Assembly (NCBI GenBank): GCA_041670805.1
Contig: JBAXYM010000003.1
Span: forward strand, 16,406-80,405
DNA length: 64,000 bases
Direction: 5' to 3'
Origin: Patescibacteria group bacterium
GTDB lineage: Bacteria > Patescibacteriota > Minisyncoccia > JAHIHE01 > JAGLIN01
Every line of letters starts with the position of its first letter. Position 1 is the stretch's first letter. Positions 1 through 62,350 of this stretch are shown here, in pieces. The notes beneath the pieces were generated by a model. That model worked only from the letters and a program-made list of their open reading frames with translations, ran no database searches and had not been told where the DNA came from. Position numbers and translations under genes: made by a program.

Positions 1-70
1 AAATGGTGTGGTCCATGGTCCGTAATTCATAATTCAAAACACGCCGAGTGTGTTAGGGCTGTCTGCTCGG
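1..70. repeat. Partial copy (end fragment) of the ~100-nt inverted-repeat element family (IRE) also present at 7.1-7.4, 56.1-56.3, 58.3-58.4 and 62.0-62.35 kb
   Basis: aaatggtgtggtcc...taattcataattcaaaacacgccgagtgtgttag matches ccatttctggtgtggtccg / ccataattcaaaatacgccgggtgtgttaaag of the other copies. Confidence 0.6.
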
Positions 71-144
71 TTAAGACGTATGGATCGGGATCCTTCGGAG
101 TACCTCAGGATGACACAAAAAAATCAAAAATAACTTTCAATCAT

Positions 145-1870: not shown

Positions 1871-3718
1871 ATGGGAATTTTAGATGCAATAAAACCGGCG
1901 AAGAAGCTGCTGGGCGCTCCTAAGGCGCAGACCAGTGAGGAAAAAACGGACCTCTTGGAGTCGGAAAAACTTTATCAGCGCGGGCTGGCGACCTTTAAGG
2001 ACATTATCGCGCCGTCCGTCTTTCAAATTACGCCGTCTTATGTGAGGATCAACAACAAGTTGGCTTCCACTCTTTTTGTTTACGCTTATCCTCGTTATTT
2101 GCAGACCAGCTGGTTCTCGCCTATTATCAATTTGGATTCCACTTTCGATGTGGCGATGTTCATTCATCCGCAAAATACCGTCGACGTTTTGAAGCAACTG
2201 CGCAAGGTGGTAACCCGCATACAGTCGCAGATTTCCATCAATGAAGACAAAGGAATGGTGCGCGACCCGGTACTGGAAACCGCTTATCAGGATGTGGAAA
2301 ATTTGCGAGACGATCTGCAGCAGGGCATAGAACATTTTTTTCAATTCGGGCTGTACATCACTCTTTATGGAGACACCGAGGAAGAAGTGCACAAAGCGGA
2401 GTTGCAAGTCGAGGCGATTTTGGAGGCCAAGTTGGTATATATGAAAGATGCGACGATGCAAATGGAGAAAGCTTTTAATTCCACCTTGCCGCTTGCCAAC
2501 GACAAGCTGATGATCGGGAACAATATGAATACCTCTCCCCTTTCCACGACGTTTCCTTTTGTTTCGAGCGATCTTACTTCCAATCAGGGTATTCTGTATG
2601 GCATCAACCGCCATAACAACAGTTTGATACTCTTCGACCGCTTCTCGATGGAAAATGCCAATATGGTGATTTTTGCTAAATCCGGCGCCGGAAAAAGTTA
2701 TATGGTAAAATTGGAAATACTGAGAAGTTTGATGCTCGGCACCGAAGTCATCGCGATTGATCCGGAAAACGAATACAAGCATCTATGCGAAATGACCGGA
2801 GGAACTTTTATGAAAATCTCGCTTTCTTCCAAAAATCACATCAATCCTTTTGACTTGCCGACCGCGCTGGAAGACGAGGATCCGGGAGACGTTCTTCGTT
2901 CGGCCATCGTGAACGTGTCGGGACTGCTGAAGGTGATGCTGGGAGAAATCACTCCGGAAGAGGATTCCATTTTGGACAAAGCAATCACTGAGAGTTATGC
3001 CATTAAAGACATTACCGTCGAATCTGATTTTACAAAGATGGAGCCGCCGACGATGACTGAGCTGCAAATGGTGCTGGAAAATATGGTGGGAGCGGAGAGC
3101 TTGGCTGCGCGGGTCAAAAAATATACGGAAGGAACTTTTGCGGGATTCTTGAATCACAAAACCAACATTGATCCGGATAATAAATTTGTTGTTTTCAATA
3201 TCCGCGACATGGAAGACGATTTGCGGCCGGTGGCGATGTATCTTGTGCTCCACTTTATCTGGAATATGATCCGGTCCGAGAGGAAGAAGCGGATTTTGGT
3301 GGTGGACGAGGCGTGGTGGATGATGCAGCATGAGGATGCCGCCTCTTTCCTCTTCGGAATTGCCAAGCGGTGCCGGAAATATTTTTTGGGACTTACCACT
3401 ATTACGCAGGATGTTACCGATTTTATGGGTTCCAAATACGGCAAACCGATTGTGACCAACTCTTCCATTCAGCTTTTGCTCAAACAATCCCCTGCGGGCA
3501 TCAAAGTGATCGTGGATACGTTCTTCCTGACGGACGAGGAAAAGTTTTTGCTCTTGGAGAGTAATGTCGGAGAAGGGATTTTCTTCGCCGGTCCCAAGCG
3601 TGCGGCAATCAAAATCGTAGCCTCTTATTCCGAGGATCAGATCATCACTTCCGATCCGGCACAGCTCTTGGAAATCGAAAAGGCCAAACAGGAGCTGTCG
3701 GGAGTGGCTGATATGTAA
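1871..3718 (+). CDS. virB4: VirB4/TrbE/TraC-family type IV secretion (conjugation-like) ATPase
   Basis: 615 aa; Walker A MVIFAKSGAGKSYMVK; Walker B RILVVDEAWWMM; N-terminal CagE/TrbE/VirB-type region (FVYAYPRYLQTSWFSPIINLDSTFDVAMFIHPQ). Confidence 0.8.
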   Translation: MGILDAIKPAKKLLGAPKAQTSEEKTDLLESEKLYQRGLATFKDIIAPSVFQITPSYVRINNKLASTLFVYAYPRYLQTSWFSPIINLDSTFDVAMFIHPQNTVDVLKQLRKVVTRIQSQISINEDKGMVRDPVLETAYQDVENLRDDLQQGIEHFFQFGLYITLYGDTEEEVHKAELQVEAILEAKLVYMKDATMQMEKAFNSTLPLANDKLMIGNNMNTSPLSTTFPFVSSDLTSNQGILYGINRHNNSLILFDRFSMENANMVIFAKSGAGKSYMVKLEILRSLMLGTEVIAIDPENEYKHLCEMTGGTFMKISLSSKNHINPFDLPTALEDEDPGDVLRSAIVNVSGLLKVMLGEITPEEDSILDKAITESYAIKDITVESDFTKMEPPTMTELQMVLENMVGAESLAARVKKYTEGTFAGFLNHKTNIDPDNKFVVFNIRDMEDDLRPVAMYLVLHFIWNMIRSERKKRILVVDEAWWMMQHEDAASFLFGIAKRCRKYFLGLTTITQDVTDFMGSKYGKPIVTNSSIQLLLKQSPAGIKVIVDTFFLTDEEKFLLLESNVGEGIFFAGPKRAAIKIVASYSEDQIITSDPAQLLEIEKAKQELSGVADM

Positions 3719-3738
3719 TCTATAGTTTTTGAAATATT

Positions 3739-4809
3739 ATGCCAGAAGGCGAAGAAAAACAACAACAAACAGGAGCAAACAAGACGGCGAAAACATTCGG
3801 GTCGCCTTTTGGTGCGCTTTCGGGCAGTGACAACAGACAGCCGGACCTGAGTTCGGAAGATAAAAATAAAATCGAAGCGAAAGTTTCGGCAAGGACTCTG
3901 GAGAAAAAGGGGGCGTCAAAAAGAGGAGGGGCTTTAGGCGAAACACCCGGGGGCTTTAGGGCGAATGAAGATTTGTCGGACAAGATAAGAACCGACTCAG
4001 CGAGAAGAGGAAACTCCGAAAAAGAGGATGGTATAGCGCAATCGGATACTCAATCAAATTCCACGAATCCGATTTCGGAGGAGCAGTACAACAAAAACCA
4101 AGCGGAAGGAATAATGAATAAACCTCAAAGCGTCAGAAGTGTGCGTGAAGAAATGCAAAAAAGAAATATGCAATCCAATCCGCATCTTTTTCAGCGCCGT
4201 GGGAAAAATGGCGAGGTCGGAATGGGAAGACCGGTGTCTTTTTCCAATTCCAAGGGCATTGGCCCTAATGCGGTTATCGGATCGGAGAATAGGAGGTTGC
4301 CGGAATCCGGAACGTCGAGGACAACATCAGGTGCCATTTCCGGCGGAGGAGCGCAGAGAGCGGAAAATTCCACTGAAAGACGGCGGAAGGAAATGGATCT
4401 CAAGGGGAGAAAAAGGCTGGCTGAAAAATTTAAGACTAGAATGGCATCTTTGCAAGGAGGCCATGAAGAAATCAGCAGCTTTGATTATTTTTTGCTTTTT
4501 ATGATTTTTGCAATTTCGGTGGCAGCGGATATTCTGGATCTGGTTATAGATCTAACCGGCGTAGGCGCTTTTTTTGCTCCCATTATGAGTCTGTTTACGA
4601 CGATTATTTTGGCCATTTTATGGTGGGTGGTTGGCGGAGAGTACCGGGCAAAAAATTTGAAGGGACTGGGTGTCGCGACTTTTGTAGAAGCCATACCTCT
4701 CGTAGATCTTTTGCCAACCAATACTTTCGAGTCCGTTAAAGCTCTCATGCTTATGATAAGCGGTAAAAAAGCAGGGAAAGCGGCAAGTAATGGAAATTCT
4801 TTCTTTTAA
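3739..4809 (+). CDS. Hypothetical protein: low-complexity G/R/S/E-rich N-terminal ~240 aa with a C-terminal multi-TM region
   Basis: 356-aa ORF directly after virB4; C-terminal hydrophobic helices (FLLFMIFAISVAADILDLVIDLTGVGAFFAPIMSLFTTIILAILWWVVGG). Confidence 0.4.
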   Translation: MPEGEEKQQQTGANKTAKTFGSPFGALSGSDNRQPDLSSEDKNKIEAKVSARTLEKKGASKRGGALGETPGGFRANEDLSDKIRTDSARRGNSEKEDGIAQSDTQSNSTNPISEEQYNKNQAEGIMNKPQSVRSVREEMQKRNMQSNPHLFQRRGKNGEVGMGRPVSFSNSKGIGPNAVIGSENRRLPESGTSRTTSGAISGGGAQRAENSTERRRKEMDLKGRKRLAEKFKTRMASLQGGHEEISSFDYFLLFMIFAISVAADILDLVIDLTGVGAFFAPIMSLFTTIILAILWWVVGGEYRAKNLKGLGVATFVEAIPLVDLLPTNTFESVKALMLMISGKKAGKAASNGNSFF

Positions 4810-6385: not shown

Positions 6386-6912
6386 TGTTTTAGAGTTCTA
6401 TGTGCAATAATTAAACCGACATTTGGATTACACCGGATAGCGCGAAATATGGAGTGGAATGTTTCTTATACGGTACTTATGCTATTTCCAGTGCGGTTCA
6501 CCTATGGTTTTTAACAGATACGGACAGGGCACTTCTTCCAGCCCGATTATCTTCAGAGCTATTTCATCAAACCTATCAAATAATATTTTTGTCATTCCAG
6601 TAGGAATCCCTTGAATGATATTTATTTGCATATGATACTATTTAGCTTATAATGTATGGATTAAGGGATCTTTACGTTGATCTCTCGCCTGTGCACCTCC
6701 CGACGCTTATATCTATTGCTTTCTAAAAAACCGTCATCCCGGAATTTGCGCAGCAAATATCCGGGATCCCGTTACCAAGTCGGTGGAAATGAAATACAAT
6801 ACTTGTCCTGCATAGCTACGGGATTCCGGATATTTCGGAGTACCGAAATTCCGGAATGACAGATATTTGACGGATGTCTATTCTTTGGTATAACTTGCTA
6901 GTTTAAGAAATC

Positions 6913-6950: not shown

Positions 6951-7074
6951 ATTGAAGGTTAGGAACAGGGAAGATGGTCCCGAAAGACCGGTTTTGGTAG
7001 AAAATTTTTGCCCATCGAACGCTTGCGGAAGAGGAGGAGACTCACCTAGCTATTCGGCAATATATGATTTTCCA

Positions 7075-7380
7075 AATCACACAAACAGTGCTGCCTCGCT
7101 CTGACGTAGTTCGTTGTATTTTGAATTATGGATTTTGAATTTATGGACCACATCAGAAATGATGTGAACCAAGCAAGGCAAAACGTTCTTGCGTAACATT
7201 CCACACCATCTCTGGTGTGGTCCGGATGCAAGAATGCATTTCTGGATTTCGAATTGTGAATTTCCGTATTTCGGATCACATCAGAAATGATGTGAACCAC
7301 GCGGGAGAGAACGTTCTTGCGTAACACTTCACACCATTTCTGGTGTGATCCGAATGCAAAGATGGCGTCTATTGTAAACA
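7075..7380. repeat. Two tandem IRE units (~100-nt inverted-repeat element family) plus flanking att-remnant region
   Basis: Units at ~7146-7233 and ~7272-7360: ggaYcacatcagaaatgatgtgaacc-(loop with AGAACGTTCT palindrome)-cacaccatYtctggtgtgRtcc; ORF 7046..7384 is a translation of this repeat. Confidence 0.7.
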
Positions 7381-7496
7381 CCACATTTTGCGTATGAGCG
7401 ATTTACCCTGCCAAGCATAAACTTCTCATCCCTCCTAAATGCGGAAGAGGAGGGATTTACCCGGCAGCGGGCATAAACTTCTCATCCCTCCTAAAT

Positions 7497-7622
7497 GCGG
7501 TGTAATCGGGTTAAGTACCCGTAACTTACAGTCAGTATAAGGCTTTTTAGGCGGTTTGGCTAGAAGGGGTTTTGAGGTACTCGGGTCGGGGTCTGAAATG
7601 GCAAAATGAGACAAATGAGACA
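7497..7622. repeat. ~126-bp direct repeat X (copy 1), left end of island A; second copy at 27593-27718 (~88% identity)
   Basis: gcggtgtaatcgggttaagtacccgtaacttacagtcagtataaggc...ggtcggggtctgaaatggcaaaatgagacaaatgagaca; a tRNA-Ser 3' fragment gcggaagaggagggatt sits at 7441-7457 just outside it. Confidence 0.7.
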
Positions 7623-17434: not shown

Positions 17435-19840
17435 TTAGAATATAATACTATTCCATCCCTTCATCGTTGGAGTATATGAATAATTTTTATCCTGATTAAT
17501 TTTCCACCCGTTGGCATCCTTAACTGCAATTCCACCACAAAAATTCTTTTTTCCCGCTAACCATTCCTGCAAAGCTTCGGCTTTATATTTTGTATCATTT
17601 GATTCGGCAGTAAAGCCTGCTTTAGTATCAATTATCCAAATCTTGTTTTTGGTCTTTATAATCCAGTCAGGATAAAATAGTTTTTCTTTATTCTCGTCAG
17701 GGTTATAATAAGAGATTGAGAAATATTCACTACCAGAATCTCCATTTTTATACCACCATTCAATATCGTTGCTTTCTTCTAAGAATTTAATAAAGAATTT
17801 TTCATTTTCTACTACTTCCTTGCTAATATAGAACGGCTCCATAGCAGAATATTTAACTTTCATATCCTGATAACTATCAGTAAAAAATAAAGAAGGTCTA
17901 GGTATCTCTATAATCTCAATTCTCTTGGAACGAACAGCTTTCTTATTTACTTCCTGGTCGCGGATAGGCCTATAAGTCTCCAATGCCTCTCCGATAATAG
18001 GACGTAAAACTCCAGATTCCTTCAGAATGTCATTTAGTATTGCCTTGTAAGCATCATTACGATTATCACCAAGCATTGGAATTAGCCATACATTTAAAGC
18101 GGTTTTTAATTTTCCCCAAGAACGTTCTGGTGCAAATTTCTTATTCTCATCCGTCTGCTTGCTAATAATATTAAAGCAGACAAGGTTGTATAATCTCTCA
18201 ATATCGTTTTGAGACATTTCTTGATCATGATTTCCTCCCTCGGCTAATAATTCTTTAACGAAATTATCGTAATCATCAATTTCCACACCGACAATAATTC
18301 CGTTAGTTACGCTTGGTTTTATGTCAAAATCCTTGGCAATCAGCTTTTTTTTAGCATCTTTATCTCCGTCTTTAATCCCAAAATATTTATTAGCTATTTT
18401 TTTAAAAGTAGTCTGGAATGAATCGCCGAGATCGTTATAGTCCGAACGGCCCATAAATACTGATTCGATCTGGATTGGCTCAATATTCTTTTTGCGATAA
18501 CTGCCAAAAATTGCCGGTTTATTTTCAGATTTATTCTTGTCATATTCACTAATTACCTCATTGCGTTTATAATTAGTATACAAATAACCTAAATTTAGTT
18601 CTGGTTTGCCATAATGGGTGCCAGTTGGCATGCGAAGAATCCTACCTACAGTTTGAATGGCAAAGGTAGGATTTTTTATTTCCCTAAACATAACCAGCAC
18701 ACCAGCACGAGGACAATCCCAGCCAGTGGCTACGGCTTGTTTGAAGAGTAAAAATTCAATCGGAGAATCGTTCTTTTCAATGTCATCAAGATTAACTTTA
18801 TCTTCAGACAGCCAAATAGCGATGTTATTTTCTAAAACACCTTTCTTTTTTAAAAATTCTACAACTATATCTTGTTTGCTAGTACTGCTTGTTTCCGCCG
18901 AAGCTTTGTCATCATTCGGAAGTTGAATAAGTACCAGGGGATTAATATCTAAACCTAATTCCTTGTAGTATTTTACCAGCTCAATTCGTCTATTATATGC
19001 AAGCTCAAGAAGAATCTCATCTTGATCCATATGTTTGAATTGTTTTTGATTCAAATCTTCTTCGGTCTGAAAAATAATCTTTTCTTTTATTAGTCCTTCT
19101 CGCACAACATCTTCACGTTTCACTCGAACAAACCCAGCTTGATTGTCTTCTATGTCGCTAAGAGTCGGTTCGTATTTTGGAGTTGCAGAAGCACGGATGA
19201 TGATTTTAGGTTTAATTAAACCATCAATAAGTTCAAGAGCTTTGTCGGTGTCAGCTCCAAGATGTTCTTCATCAATAATCACTATGATTTCCCTTTTCTC
19301 TTCATGAGTAGCCTCAATCATTCCATCAAAAGAAACATCCTGTTCGTTTTCACGCCTAATTTTTAAAACTTCTTTCGATTGTCCTTTTAATTTTTCCCAA
19401 TTTATGAAAAAAACACTGTTGTGAGTAAGTACCTTGTGATTAAGATCATTTATATCCAAAAGCTCCAATTCCGAAGCGCCGCCATAATACTCAAAGAGCT
19501 TATTCTTGCTCTGCTCAACAAGAGTAGGGCCTTTGGACATCCATAAAAAAGCAGCGTCGTTACCAACAAAACGAGGATCAGAAACAATATCACGTAAAAA
19601 TTGTGCTAACATCACAGTTTTTCCTGACCCTGTTGGAGATTTGAAAACTAGAGGCAGTTGATTTTCAGAAGTTTTCCATAAATCTAAAAACTGATCTTTA
19701 AGTTTAGCTATGGCAGTTTCCTGAAATGGTTTTAGTGCAAACATATTATAGGCGATTAATTTCTTTATAAACTTCAAGAATTGGTTCTGGAATATCTTCA
19801 ACATGAATATTGTCAGAGCTATATTCGTTGGTATACTCAT
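17435..19840 (-). CDS. res: Type III restriction enzyme Res subunit (SF2 helicase-nuclease)
   Basis: 801 aa ORF; motif I FKSPTGSGKTVMLAQF, motif II IIDEEHL; a likelier start is the internal Met at 19744 (MFALKPFQETAI), which removes the 95-nt overlap with mod. Confidence 0.65.
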   Translation of the reverse strand: MSIPTNIALTIFMLKIFQNQFLKFIKKLIAYNMFALKPFQETAIAKLKDQFLDLWKTSENQLPLVFKSPTGSGKTVMLAQFLRDIVSDPRFVGNDAAFLWMSKGPTLVEQSKNKLFEYYGGASELELLDINDLNHKVLTHNSVFFINWEKLKGQSKEVLKIRRENEQDVSFDGMIEATHEEKREIIVIIDEEHLGADTDKALELIDGLIKPKIIIRASATPKYEPTLSDIEDNQAGFVRVKREDVVREGLIKEKIIFQTEEDLNQKQFKHMDQDEILLELAYNRRIELVKYYKELGLDINPLVLIQLPNDDKASAETSSTSKQDIVVEFLKKKGVLENNIAIWLSEDKVNLDDIEKNDSPIEFLLFKQAVATGWDCPRAGVLVMFREIKNPTFAIQTVGRILRMPTGTHYGKPELNLGYLYTNYKRNEVISEYDKNKSENKPAIFGSYRKKNIEPIQIESVFMGRSDYNDLGDSFQTTFKKIANKYFGIKDGDKDAKKKLIAKDFDIKPSVTNGIIVGVEIDDYDNFVKELLAEGGNHDQEMSQNDIERLYNLVCFNIISKQTDENKKFAPERSWGKLKTALNVWLIPMLGDNRNDAYKAILNDILKESGVLRPIIGEALETYRPIRDQEVNKKAVRSKRIEIIEIPRPSLFFTDSYQDMKVKYSAMEPFYISKEVVENEKFFIKFLEESNDIEWWYKNGDSGSEYFSISYYNPDENKEKLFYPDWIIKTKNKIWIIDTKAGFTAESNDTKYKAEALQEWLAGKKNFCGGIAVKDANGWKINQDKNYSYTPTMKGWNSIIF

Positions 19841-27543: not shown

Positions 27544-27718
27544 CACCCAACAAAATCTGGGTATTCGGGTCTATCCGATACTAAATTGTCTTGGCGGTGT
27601 AAGTGGGTTAAGTACCCATAGCTTACAATCAGTGTAAGGCTTTTCAGGCAGTTTGACTAGAAGCGGTTTTGAGGTACTTGGGTCGGGGTCTAAAATGCAG
27701 AATGAGACAAATGAGACA
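27544..27718. repeat. Junction of islands A and B: ~54-bp repeat Y (duplicate of the tRNA-Ser 3' end plus downstream flank and dyad hairpin) directly followed by repeat X copy 2
   Basis: 27553-27596 ctgggtattcgggtctatccgatactaaattgtcttggcgg matches 47869-47912; 27593-27718 matches 7497-7622. Confidence 0.7.
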
Positions 27719-32806: not shown

Positions 32807-33067
32807 AGTTTTGTAGGATAGGTTTTTTAAATTGTTTCTGGCTCAGAATACAAAAAGGGTCTTCCGAACCAGCTGGTGAATCCTTCCGGAGACACCACTA
32901 CCTCCTTTCGAAGATAGACCTATCCTACAAGTACTAGTCAGAAGACCGTTGCTATGTAGGATAGGATTTGATTACCATGCCCTGACCGAAGCCAGAGTTT
33001 AGGCAATTTATGAGTATATAGTAGCACAAATATAGAAAATGGGAAGTCTTAGTTACCTACAGTTTAT

Positions 33068-47791: not shown

Positions 47792-47857
47792 TATGAAATT
47801 AGTCTTTAGTCATAAAGGTCGAAAAATAATACAACTTCAAATTTTATTAGCATGAAA

Positions 47858-47912
47858 ATACCCAGCAAAAGCTGGGTATTCGGGTCTATCCGATACTTTG
47901 TTGTCTTGGCGG
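47858..47912. repeat. ~54-bp repeat Y copy 2 (dyad hairpin, tRNA downstream flank and last 6 nt of tRNA-Ser); right end of island B
   Basis: atacccagcaaaagctgggtattcgggtctatccgatactttgttgtcttggcgg; duplicated at 27544-27596. Confidence 0.7.
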
Positions 47913-47996
47913 AAGAGGAGGGATTCGAACCCTCGAGACCCGTTAAGGTCTACTGCTTTTCGAGAGCAGCGCTTTCAACCACTCAGCCACCCTTCC
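47907..47996 (-). tRNA. tRNA-Ser (anticodon CGA), type II with long variable arm, CCA encoded
   Basis: rc reads GGAAGGGTGGCTGAGTGGTTGAAAGCGCTGCTCTCGAAAAGCAGTAGACCTTAACGGGTCTCGAGGGTTCGAATCCCTCCTCTTCCGCCA; anticodon loop CUCGAAA with U33 and A37; T-arm GGTTCGAATCC. Confidence 0.85.
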
Positions 47997-55979: not shown

Positions 55980-56099
55980 GGCTGTTGTTGTGTTGCCAGT
56001 TCTTGCGAAGAGTATTTTTTCGCACAAATAAACATGGTCTTATAAAAAATCATAAGTTGTGTCCGTTGGGGTCATACGCAAAATATGGTTTTATAACAG

Positions 56100-56290
56100 A
56101 CACCGGTTTTGCATTCGGATCACACTAGAAATGGTGTGAAATTCTACACAAGAACGTTCTGTCCCGCATGGTTCACATCATTTCTGATGTGATCCGAAAT
56201 ACGGAAATTCACAATTCGAAATTCATAAATCCATAATTCAAAATACGCCGGGTGTGTTAAAGATTGTCTACCGGATCATAACCATGTATT
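56100..56290. repeat. IRE copy (reverse orientation) with flanking ataattcaaaatacgccgggtgtgtta segment
   Basis: ggatcacactagaaatggtgtgaa...ggttcacatcatttctgatgtgatccg; matches the other IRE copies and the window start. Confidence 0.7.
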
Positions 56291-56363
56291 GCGTATGACC
56301 CGTCCGTTGTTTTGTCCCTTGCTTTTTAACTCAATTTGTCTATACTTAGTAAGTATTTTATCG

Positions 56364-58262: not shown

Positions 58263-58319
58263 AAGGTAAAATCAATATGTATTTGTCATTCCGGAATTTC
58301 GGTACTCCGATTTTACGAG

Positions 58320-58440
58320 GCATTTTGACTTATGAATTTTCGGATCACACCAGAAATGGTGTGAACCAAGCAGGACAGAACGTTTTTGCGTAATATTTCG
58401 CACCATTTCCGGTGTGGTCCGGATGCAAAGTTGGATTTCC
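58320..58440. repeat. IRE copy
   Basis: ttcggatcacaccagaaatggtgtgaaccaagcaggacagaacgtttttgcgtaatatttcgcaccatttccggtgtggtccggatgcaaag. Confidence 0.7.
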
Positions 58441-60895: not shown

Positions 60896-62146
60896 TTATA
60901 TTTTTTCATATAGCTCAAGAGTCTCCCTTCCCATCTTGTTCCATTCGTATTTTTTGATTTGTGCGAATCCGTTGCTCTTGAGTTCATTATACAGTTTTTT
61001 ATCGCTAAAAACCAGATGTATCTTTTCTGCCATATCTTTGGGGTTTTGCGGATCAAAATATATCGCGCCGTTTCCCAGTATTTCCGGCAAACTGGTGCGG
61101 TCGGAGGAGATGACAGGTGTGCCGCAGCTCATCGCTTCCAGCCCGATAAGTCCGAATCCTTCATAAAAAGACGGAATGATAAACGCGGCGGCGGCGTTAT
61201 AAAAAACGGGAAGCTCCTCTTGGCTGATGAAGCCGACAGGAATGACGTCTTGTTGCAGTCCGAGTTTTTCCCAAGCCTCGCGCACCTCCGGATAAAACGG
61301 GTCTTCTTTGCCTCCCAGCACCAAGCTGATGTCAAGGCGATATTTTTCTTTGGCGATTTTGAATGCTTCAATAAGCCCTACCAGATTTTTGTGGTTGCGC
61401 CAAACACCGGTGTAGAAAAGGAAAGGTTTTTTGAGCGCGTATTTTTTTCTCAGATTTTCCACGAGACTGCGGTCTTCAAGCGGGCGGAATTGTGCGTCCG
61501 CGCCTTCGTAGATCACTTGTATTTTTTTGTCTTTGACTTTGAAATATTTGACGATGTCGTTCTTGGTCGAGTTGGAAACGGCGATGATTTTTCGAGCCTT
61601 TTTGACGGAAAAATAAAAAACCAATCGGAAGCCCAAACGGCGCAAGGGCGATTTCATTTTGTGTCCGGGGAAGAAAAACGGCGTCACATCGTGGATGGTG
61701 GTGACGGATTTGCGAAGATACAAAATGGGAGAATTGAAATGCGTGAAATGCATCAGGTCGAGATTTTCTTTATAGAGCGTGAAAGGAAAAATAATTTGTT
61801 CTCTCCAACCGTACCATTTGCAGGAAGTTTTTACCTTGCGCACCCTCTCGTTCGGAATCGGAAAACTATCGAATTCTTCCGGCATCAAGAAAATAACGTA
61901 ATTGTTCACGCGGTCGTTTTCAAAAACATACTCAAGTAAGTGGCGGATGTAGTTGCCTATCCCCGTCTGGGCATAGCCGAACATCCGCGCATCAATGCCG
62001 ATGGTTTTGGGTTTTTGATTTTGCATAAAATTAGGAGTTACGGGGTTGGATTTTCGGATTGTGAATTTCCGGATTTCGGATTCCGGATTCCGGATCACAT
62101 CAGAAATGATGTGAACCACGCGGGACAAAACGTTCTCGCGAGACAT
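60896..62146 (-). CDS. GT4-family glycosyltransferase
   Basis: C-terminal EGFGLIGLEAMSCGTPVISSDRTSLPEI; the first ~40 codons of the ORF translate an IRE repeat (NVLSRVVHIISDVIRN), so the true start is probably the Met at ~62026 (MQNQKPKTIGIDARMF). Confidence 0.7.
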   Translation of the reverse strand: MSRENVLSRVVHIISDVIRNPESEIRKFTIRKSNPVTPNFMQNQKPKTIGIDARMFGYAQTGIGNYIRHLLEYVFENDRVNNYVIFLMPEEFDSFPIPNERVRKVKTSCKWYGWREQIIFPFTLYKENLDLMHFTHFNSPILYLRKSVTTIHDVTPFFFPGHKMKSPLRRLGFRLVFYFSVKKARKIIAVSNSTKNDIVKYFKVKDKKIQVIYEGADAQFRPLEDRSLVENLRKKYALKKPFLFYTGVWRNHKNLVGLIEAFKIAKEKYRLDISLVLGGKEDPFYPEVREAWEKLGLQQDVIPVGFISQEELPVFYNAAAAFIIPSFYEGFGLIGLEAMSCGTPVISSDRTSLPEILGNGAIYFDPQNPKDMAEKIHLVFSDKKLYNELKSNGFAQIKKYEWNKMGRETLELYEKI

Positions 62147-62350
62147 TTTTCACTATCTCTGGTGTGATCCGAATGCAAAAATGCATTTATGAATTTCGGA
62201 TTTTTGTATTATGGATTTTGAATTTATGAATTTCCGGATTCCGGATCACATCAGAAATGATGTGAACCACGCGAGATAGAACGTTTTTACGCAGCATTTC
62301 ACACCATTTCCGGTGTGATCCGAATGCAGTCAGGATGCAGTCGGAAATGC
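62040..62350. repeat. Two tandem IRE units between the two glycosyltransferase genes
   Basis: Units at ~62085-62175 and ~62240-62330 with flanking ttcggattccggattccggat and tatggattttgaatttatgaa motifs as at 7.1-7.4 kb. Confidence 0.7.

Follow-up and report, generated by a model that had tools for sequence, protein, structure and literature searches.

The locus and the repeat unit

The 64,000-nt stretch of Patescibacteria DNA analysed here (contig JBAXYM010000003.1; hereafter the window) carries in its intergenic spacers several copies of a short inverted-repeat element, which is the subject of this work. The window is part of contig k141_614727 (160 kb) of the ENA assembly ERZ27249489. Its PNPase is identical to that of an entry named "MAG: Patescibacteria group bacterium" (MAG, metagenome-assembled genome), with Candidatus Pacebacteria or Paceibacterota as the labels of the next relatives, at 89% or less. 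The host is an uncultured ultra-small member of the Patescibacteria (Candidate Phyla Radiation, CPR), Paceibacteria-like, and the genes neighbouring the element are those usual for such bacteria: PrgI, TraC-like and VirB4/TraG-like proteins, pilins of a type IV secretion system (T4SS), DUF4012 and glycosyltransferases (GT) of the GT4 family. A preliminary description had proposed at least seven copies of a nested inverted repeat, all intergenic and close to tRNAs, the pilins and the GT genes. We found six complete units and a seventh cut by the window start, which is entire on the parent contig (L130 9744-9929; the loci gathered for comparison are designated by L and a number). All window copies are intergenic, and the gene map agrees with the proposed surroundings: one copy lies 62 nt upstream of tRNA-Leu, two adjoin tRNA-Ser-derived attachment repeats, one is located between the DUF4012 and pilin genes and two between the two GT4 genes (Table 1).

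The core of the unit is 79 nt long and consists of a 23-nt arm, a spacer of about 33 nt centred on AACGTT and an inverted copy of the 23-nt arm. Arms of the GGATCACAYCAGAAATGRTGTGA type number nine in the window where none is expected, the 23-nt sequence GGATCACATCAGAAATGATGTGA being matched nine times with three mismatches at most and shuffled sequences giving no match. The arm starts with GGA(T/C)CAC, and each arm alone is predicted to fold into an 8-bp stem closed by a loop of GAAA or TTTC (-7.6 to -10.1 kcal/mol as single-stranded DNA, ssDNA), in line with the hairpins and tetraloops first described. The two 23-nt arms were thus correctly recognized in the preliminary description; the perfect palindrome AGAACGTTCT, given there as the centre of the unit, is found in only two of the six cores, with a third match at 18119 that is unrelated. 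The family consensus at the centre of the spacer is A(G/A)AACGTT(C/T)T, with AACGTT conserved at 84-98% per position in 136 distinct cores. The arms are separated by 33 nt in 146 units and by 32 nt in 49. As an alignment of 195 extended units (MAFFT, automatic mode) indicates, the conserved unit comprises the core and about 15-30 nt on either side, that is about 100-130 nt with flanks, close to the 100 nt originally estimated; that some copies lie inside a longer element of about 230 nt had escaped notice. Upstream, the core is preceded by octamers resembling GAATTWTG, in a variable run that ends with ATTTC, and downstream it is followed by GRATRCAAA; in tandem arrays the repeating module, made of the core and a linker, measures about 128-150 nt.

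Inverted doublets account for 414 arms, while 53 were counted as solitary, most of those inspected having a degenerate partner. When arms are read inwards from their outer end, 425 have a GAAA or GAGA loop and one has it flipped. The copy at the window start (core at L130 9797-9875) is a second case of a flipped loop, otherwise seen in about 1 of 426 arms: with respect to the outer flanks its core spacer has the opposite orientation, and in its second arm the loop is GAAA instead of TTTC. Such an inversion together with a flipped loop would be expected from recombination between or within palindromic arms.

Table 1. Copies of the element and associated features in the window.
Feature	Position	Strand	Remark
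3' part of a long-form copy	1..73	-	last 14 nt of the core in the window, then flank
Degenerate left end GCTATTCGGCAATATATGATT (outer terminal repeat) of the compound element holding units 1 and 2	7049..7069	+	probable, low confidence
Short-form unit 1	7113..7233	+	core 7145-7223
Core 1	7145-7223	+	complete, 79 nt
Unit 2 with right flank and right outer terminal repeat (7381-7399)	7234..7399	+	core 7273-7351
Core 2	7273-7351	+	complete, 79 nt
Target-site duplication GTCCGTTG, left	56061..56068	.	
Complete long-form element	56069..56301	-	233 nt; core 56117-56195
Core 3	56117-56195	-	complete, 79 nt
Target-site duplication GTCCGTTG, right	56302..56309	.	
Short-form unit	58318..58434	+	core 58342-58420; directly 3' of the DUF4012 stop codon
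Core 4	58342-58420	+	complete, 79 nt
Short-form unit	62049..62182	+	core 62092-62170, right arm degenerate
Core 5	62092-62170	+	complete, 79 nt
Short-form unit	62193..62330	+	core 62243-62321; in tandem with the 62049..62182 unit, between two GT4 genes
Core 6	62243-62321	+	complete, 79 nt

Pairing within the arms

Taken as ssDNA, the whole core has as its minimum-energy fold a long hairpin that joins one arm to the other (-31.4 kcal/mol, z = -10), and in this hairpin 95% of cells pair, yet its covariation does not exceed that of shuffled alignments. When double-sided changes in the 136 distinct cores were compared with 500 column shuffles, the left local hairpin showed 49 of them (shuffle mean 11.9, maximum 20) and the right one 19 (mean 6.5, maximum 14), whereas the arm-to-arm helix showed 26 (mean 29, maximum 46) and the central stem 13 (mean 20, maximum 33). 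The pairs with the highest mutual information, 9-18 (0.43), 8-19 (0.40) and 62-71 (0.20), each lie within one arm, and the value for the matching arm-to-arm pairs is 0.00. The T/C and A/G differences between arms, interpreted at the outset as compensatory within each local hairpin, are therefore a property of the family as a whole, exceeding all 500 shuffles and extending beyond the window copies, and the proposal of a constraint on local structure is borne out, since covariation is confined to the local hairpins.

Three perfectly paired stem variants dominate, AC/GT, AT/AT and GC/GC, with mismatched intermediates amounting to about 10%. When units are paired with their nearest neighbour by spacer and right arm, the left arm belongs to the same class in 45% of cases, against 47% expected if unlinked; being unlinked to the rest of the unit, the stem variants are not subfamily markers. 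The GC/GC variant is usually accompanied by the GAGA loop, which suggests that whole arms have been swapped between copies rather than each pair re-invented many times. Whichever route was taken, arm exchange or re-invention, it is the pairing within each arm that is preserved. That the local hairpins are kept and the long hairpin is not provides an argument, drawn from sequence alone, on which structure the enzyme would see.

A long form with terminal repeats and signs of mobility

About 10-15% of the copies belong to a long form of about 230 nt, with outer inverted ends (GGGTCATACGCAA...) and a target duplication of about 8 bp, whose terminal inverted repeats are GGGTCATACGCAAWAYATGG at both ends. 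The 233-nt element next to tRNA-Leu is its complete representative in the window: its terminal repeats, GGGTCATACGCAAAATATGG and GGGTCATACGCAATACATGG, match at 18 of 20 positions, its flank is an AT-rich octamer repeat, and it is bordered by the exact 8-bp direct duplication GTCCGTTG. At the corresponding site, L123 and L125 have short empty spacers. Eighteen copies are near full length and, besides that of the window, about five (two of them at the same locus) have imperfect duplications of 7-9 bp. Among the loci gathered, a profile of the long form gave 268 non-overlapping matches, most of which span the short form only. Units 1 and 2 of the window would form a compound element whose candidate left end, GCTATTCGGCAATATATGATT, is kept in the sister strain L126 and matches the outer terminal-repeat consensus weakly (about 14 of 21 positions).

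In 59 of 70 cases the outer terminal repeats have the core just inside, the remaining 11 belonging to a different small element with the same ends. This other element begins with the outer terminal sequence GGTCATACGCAATAT... and has a different interior; it occurs at 6500-6700 of the window as well as in L031 (4735), L034 (2788), L041 (852), L091 and L115. Because this second family of miniature inverted-repeat transposable elements (MITE) has the same outer terminal repeat, the comparison suggests that one transposase has served several passenger families.

Further support for mobility comes from the comparison of occupied and unoccupied spacers. At the junction between the two GT genes, which holds two units in the window, the genes are 3-10 nt apart in L123 and L125, and L121 and L122 carry a different repeat. 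The sister strain L126 has a single unit where the window has two, the absent 128 nt corresponding to 7145-7272 and beginning exactly at the core boundary. As this extra unit is only about 84% identical to its neighbour, while the flanks are about 94% identical between the window and L126, it is not a recent local duplication. In L011 and L109, a 185-nt segment with the element interrupts another repeat, of the GTCATCCCGGAATTTGCGCAGCAAATATCCGGGATCCCG/CGGGATTCCGGATATTTCGGAGTACCGAAATTCCGGAATGAC family described below, at the same point; a search for empty sites gave this insertion only. From these comparisons the element is mobile, at least historically. Pairwise alignments of candidate filled and empty landfill loci were also attempted and set aside as uninformative, because different repeat families occupy the same spacers.

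Distribution of the family

A scan of metagenomes returned matches in at least 117 stretches, and all those listed come from a single landfill series (Ga0172377, Ga0172378 and Ga0172381). The window's own species is present in one of these samples (L131), where PrgI is identical and the element copy is the same. Together with the window, the listed stretches hold at least 207 distinct units in at least 179 distinct distal-flank contexts, which is not what a simple local tandem duplication would leave, and the copies are found in independent assemblies (ENA, JGI and NCBI-derived records). Since the cores are on average only 85% identical, the family is old and diversified. On the window contig, units number 7 per about 33 kb of DNA outside islands.

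In related genomes, about 116 kb of syntenic DNA from relatives L121-L125 and L127-L129 (PNPase 77-90%) holds no copy. When one genome for each of 185,579 species was scanned for exact matches, a single stray arm came up, in a Saccharibacteria MAG (L001 3990-4035, CAYWAL010000001.1). This exact right-arm 23-mer is followed 9 nt on by the partial repeat TTCTGGTGTGGTCC, has neither spacer nor second arm, and compares with about 0.07 matches expected by chance; it is perhaps a remnant or else a shared site for a protein. Viral contigs scanned for the arm and for the outer terminal repeat gave no match, and a full-text literature search of incomplete coverage returned no account of REP, REPIN or MITE families from CPR or Patescibacteria.

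The element also affects gene prediction. Three open reading frames (ORFs) with the common peptide NVLSRVVHIISDVIRN, already suspected to be spurious, are confirmed as translations of the repeat, one of them in part: the longest ORF of a GT4 gene (60896-62146, -) reaches about 40 codons into the repeat, whereas, as its orthologues show, the true start lies downstream of the repeat, at the ATG of MQNQKPKTIGID (MQNQKPK...), so that the unit at 62049..62182 overlaps a spurious N-terminal extension. Automatic annotation of such genomes will carry repeat-derived N-termini. The repeats also cause assemblies to break and give rise to spurious ORFs and falsely extended N-termini, which affects the annotation of such MAGs.

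Nature of the element

We propose that the family is probably a lineage-specific, non-autonomous mobile repeat, organized as a hairpin doublet that resembles REPINs (doublets of repetitive extragenic palindromic, REP, sequences) and bacterial interspersed mosaic elements (BIMEs), and that in some copies lies inside a MITE. The family is new and belongs to a kind of small mobile repeat well known in bacteria; we file it as working like a REPIN or a MITE rather than as a proven member of the REPINs mobilised by RAYTs (REP-associated tyrosine transposases). Neither this likeness nor the insertion polymorphism and the long form with terminal repeats and duplication figured in the preliminary description. 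Judging from established transposon biology, the terminal inverted repeats and 8-bp duplication of the long form would point to a DDE-type transposase making staggered cuts and acting in trans. The arms would be the sites of action of the enzyme, each recognised as an intrastrand hairpin in ssDNA or in an extruded cruciform; this is suggested by the pairing kept within each arm, by the fixed orientation of the loop relative to the outer end and by the shuffling of whole-arm variants. No host function would be required, although one may exist.

The likeness to the REPINs and BIMEs of Pseudomonas fluorescens and Escherichia coli (Bertels and Rainey 2011, PMC3116915) extends to most of the general plan. 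Two short palindromic arms in inverted orientation surround a spacer, the unit is about 100 nt long and present in hundreds of extragenic copies irrespective of gene orientation, the doublet and not the singlet is the unit, tandem clusters have asymmetric flanks, the family is confined to one lineage, and the whole unit can fold as a long ssDNA hairpin. The long form, for its part, agrees with MITEs in being small, non-coding and multi-copy (100-233 nt), in having terminal repeats and a target duplication, and in the existence of empty sites.

Bacterial MITEs include the Correia elements of Neisseria, the pneumococcal RUP and BOX elements and the enterobacterial ERIC sequences. Like them, the element is small, non-coding, multi-copy and intergenic, with nested and compound arrangements, its long form has terminal inverted repeats with a target duplication, and several families share one terminal repeat. 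It differs in that its sequence is unrelated, most copies lack outer ends, the conserved module is the internal hairpin doublet and not the termini, and a search of the fragmentary assemblies found no autonomous parent insertion sequence (IS). Correia elements have 26-bp terminal repeats of defined sequence and a TA target duplication; judged by this description, the terminal sequence of the element differs and its duplication is of about 8 bp and not TA. A partial resemblance exists as well with the subterminal hairpins of IS200/IS605, which are recognised as ssDNA by Y1 enzymes of the HUH type: both are short imperfect hairpins in which structure is kept over exact sequence, and the covariation of the element is consistent with recognition of folded single strands. 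In IS200/IS605, the two hairpins flank the transposase gene on the same strand, without inverted symmetry and without target duplication; the arms of the element, in contrast, are inverted copies with no gene between them.

Several observations weigh against the proposed non-autonomous mobile repeat. The outer terminal repeats are present in only about 10-15% of units, so that the mechanism they reveal covers a minority. For the short form, neither a clean target duplication nor an exact boundary could be defined, and the AACGTT of the spacer is conserved beyond the needs of a passive loop. No transposase with matching ends was found on the element-bearing contigs, although these fragmentary metagenome assemblies provide weak evidence of absence. 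In addition, the one RAYT-type gene found on an element-bearing contig (L049 3114-3812) is flanked, within 2860-3900, by several GTAG-headed REPs, GTAGAGACGCGATAAATCGCGTCTCT, that are different from the element. Clustering of the ORFs of all loci yielded no multi-copy transposase-like family, only translations of the repeat, and the only genes between paired outer terminal repeats spaced by 0.4-4 kb are housekeeping ones (GreA, ParA and ParB).

The RAYT of L049 was first met as the one weak match of a phmmer search, with an E. coli YafM query, complemented by a motif regular expression, and later proved to be a real RAYT. It scores 23.9 bits with Pfam Y1_Tnp (cut-off 23) and 54.5 bits with NCBIfam REP_Tyr_transpos, below the cut-off of 80, and its homologues carry the name RayT in their sources. 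Between the HUH and Tyr motifs of the RAYT, further copies of the GTAGAGACGCGATAAATCGCGTCTCT REP interrupt the gene in frame; the family of this REP occupies about 20 loci, none in the window. Being associated with another REP, this RAYT was rejected as the mobiliser of the element. No second RAYT was found in 843 kb of element-bearing contigs, and a search for homologues returned no second copy from the lineage.

Alternative explanations

The element could be a true REPIN, in which a dedicated RAYT, a single-copy HUH tyrosine transposase that sees ssDNA hairpins, would cut and join the arms as its REPs. The inverted doublet of palindromic arms around a spacer and the extragenic placement independent of orientation are as this explanation predicts; so are the local covariation and whole-arm shuffling, which fit an enzyme acting at hairpins, and the lineage does encode a RAYT. 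The tandem clusters, whose 5' flank is longer than the 3' one, also recall those of REPINs (PMC3116915). We nevertheless consider it unlikely. REPINs form a long hairpin by pairing of their halves and show changes that compensate for one another on its two sides (PMC3116915), whereas in the element the long-range pairs are without such changes and covariation is limited to the local hairpins of the arms.

REPs of the E. coli and Pseudomonas type have a conserved 5' GTAG-type tetranucleotide at their head, and HUH transposition (IS200/IS605, RAYT) yields neither terminal inverted repeats nor an 8-bp target duplication. The arms of the element have no GTAG head, whereas the REP flanking the RAYT of the lineage has the classic one; the terminal inverted repeats and 8-bp duplication of some copies are not products of HUH transposition; and no cognate RAYT was found for the element in the 843 kb, which come from incomplete genomes.

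A bolder possibility is that CPR bacteria have an undescribed system of recombination or transposition specific for hairpins, with the arms as its substrate and with an enzyme that would be neither the GTAG-REP RAYT of the lineage nor a classical DDE transposase and would exchange whole hairpins, the conserved AACGTT being a second protein site. Such an exchange would explain why three perfectly paired arm variants are shuffled independently of the remainder of the unit, but we regard this scenario as quite unlikely.

Very unlikely, in our opinion, is a structured RNA, be it a cis-acting element of untranslated regions (a stabiliser or processing site) or a set of small RNA genes, with the two local hairpins as the functional fold. 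The covariation of the local stems would suit it, the loop variants GAAA and GAGA both fit GNRA, and G-T combinations are frequent in the central stem on a defined strand; however, only one of the two arms would have a GNRA loop on any transcript. The units show no orientation bias to genes, divergent, convergent and tandem spacers being used equally: with crude ORF calls, 47 units are sense-tandem, 54 antisense-tandem, 24 convergent and 23 divergent, which is in line with the background of spacer types. Promoter-like and terminator-like matches within the units are at shuffle level and not common between copies. Rfam 15 gives no match at the units at the gathering threshold, and the best score at a permissive E-value, 23 bits against a threshold of 79, belongs to an unrelated plant miRNA model. 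The presence or absence of the element between close relatives, the different repeat families found in the same spacers, and the target duplication and terminal repeats speak against an RNA as well. A strand-specific RNA had also been considered from the G-T excess of the central stem and was rejected, the G-T combinations being largely in the consensus and gene orientation being random. Of the two possibilities raised in the preliminary description, a structured RNA and a protein or cruciform recognition site, the latter, with ssDNA included, fits better, given the lack of orientation or context bias, of promoters or terminators and of Rfam matches.

The arms and AACGTT might instead be palindromic operators of a duplex protein-binding array exploited by the host (a nucleoid, gyrase or IHF-type site, as proposed for the BIMEs of E. 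coli) or a DNA-uptake signal. The palindromic nature of arms and centre and the conservation of AACGTT would be natural in such an array, as would the high density, about 1 unit per 4-5 kb of core chromosome, and the absence of units from recently acquired islands. We hold this to be highly improbable, since independent recognition of half-sites on duplex DNA predicts no coupled complementary changes in the stems, placement resembles insertion and not conserved positioning, and close relatives with the same gene order are entirely without the element, which is therefore not needed for conserved functions of the chromosome.

Finally, a local duplication or decaying inverted repeat without constraint on the family, or a chance or assembly artefact, could be imagined from the tandem pairs at two window loci and deserves practically no credence, being refuted by the count of arms where none is expected by chance, by the hundreds of dispersed copies in metagenomes and independent assemblies, and by the covariation above shuffles.

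Islands and other repeat families

CPR/Patescibacteria genomes are usually described as small and streamlined. The intergenic spacers of the lineage studied here are packed with the doublet, in hundreds of copies, and with other small repeats of at least four or five families. In close relatives with identical gene order, the junctions are tight and free of repeats, which makes the lineage a natural system for the study of selfish DNA invading a minimal genome and persisting in it.

A second inverted-repeat family, about 130-150 nt long (GTCATCCCGGAATTTGCGCAGCAAATATCCGGGATCCCG ... CGGGATTCCGGATATTTCGGAGTACCGAAATTCCGGAATGAC), is found at 6733-6860 of the window, as fragments at 58280-58310, where it adjoins the unit at 58318..58434, and at many other loci (e.g. 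L012 2680-2850, L054 4430-4600). A third, with ends of the GTCATCCTGAGGTACTCCGAAGGATCCCGA type, occurs at 85-115 and 656-686 of the window and at about 9072-9122 of L103; in some strains it fills spacers that hold the element in others. A fourth, with CGGAGTAGC...GCTACTCCG ends, is located at the GT-GT junction of L121 (1342-1568) and L122 (1902-2078) and in the flanks of many units, and chimeric half-units fused to it were observed in L009, L023, L025, L031, L034 and L072. Another repeat family of about 280 nt lies between the TraC-like and VirB4-like genes (1514-1793), where it overlaps a probably spurious ORF of 85 amino acids (1507-1764); the landfill loci have multiple copies of it, 82-89% identical (L017, L023, L030, L035, L038, L056, L077 twice, L082, L093, L096 and L118).

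The region 7400-47996 of the window consists of two tandem, related, low-GC islands of about 20.6 kb each, at a tRNA-Ser gene (47907-47996, -). They carry DNA methylases, a type III restriction helicase, a KAP NTPase, SF1 helicases and a terminase-like gene, and are associated with attachment-like repeats at 7497-7600, 27594-27697 and 47854-47932 and with tRNA 3'-end fragments at 7415-7444 and 7471-7500. Both are absent from the sister strain L126 (PNPase 99%), neither contains a copy of the element, and in L121-L125 the T4SS genes are joined directly to a gene coding for 1213 amino acids. The second island includes a LOOT RNA (Rfam RF03000) at 32875-33005 (-), with 63.7 bits against a gathering score of 46.4.

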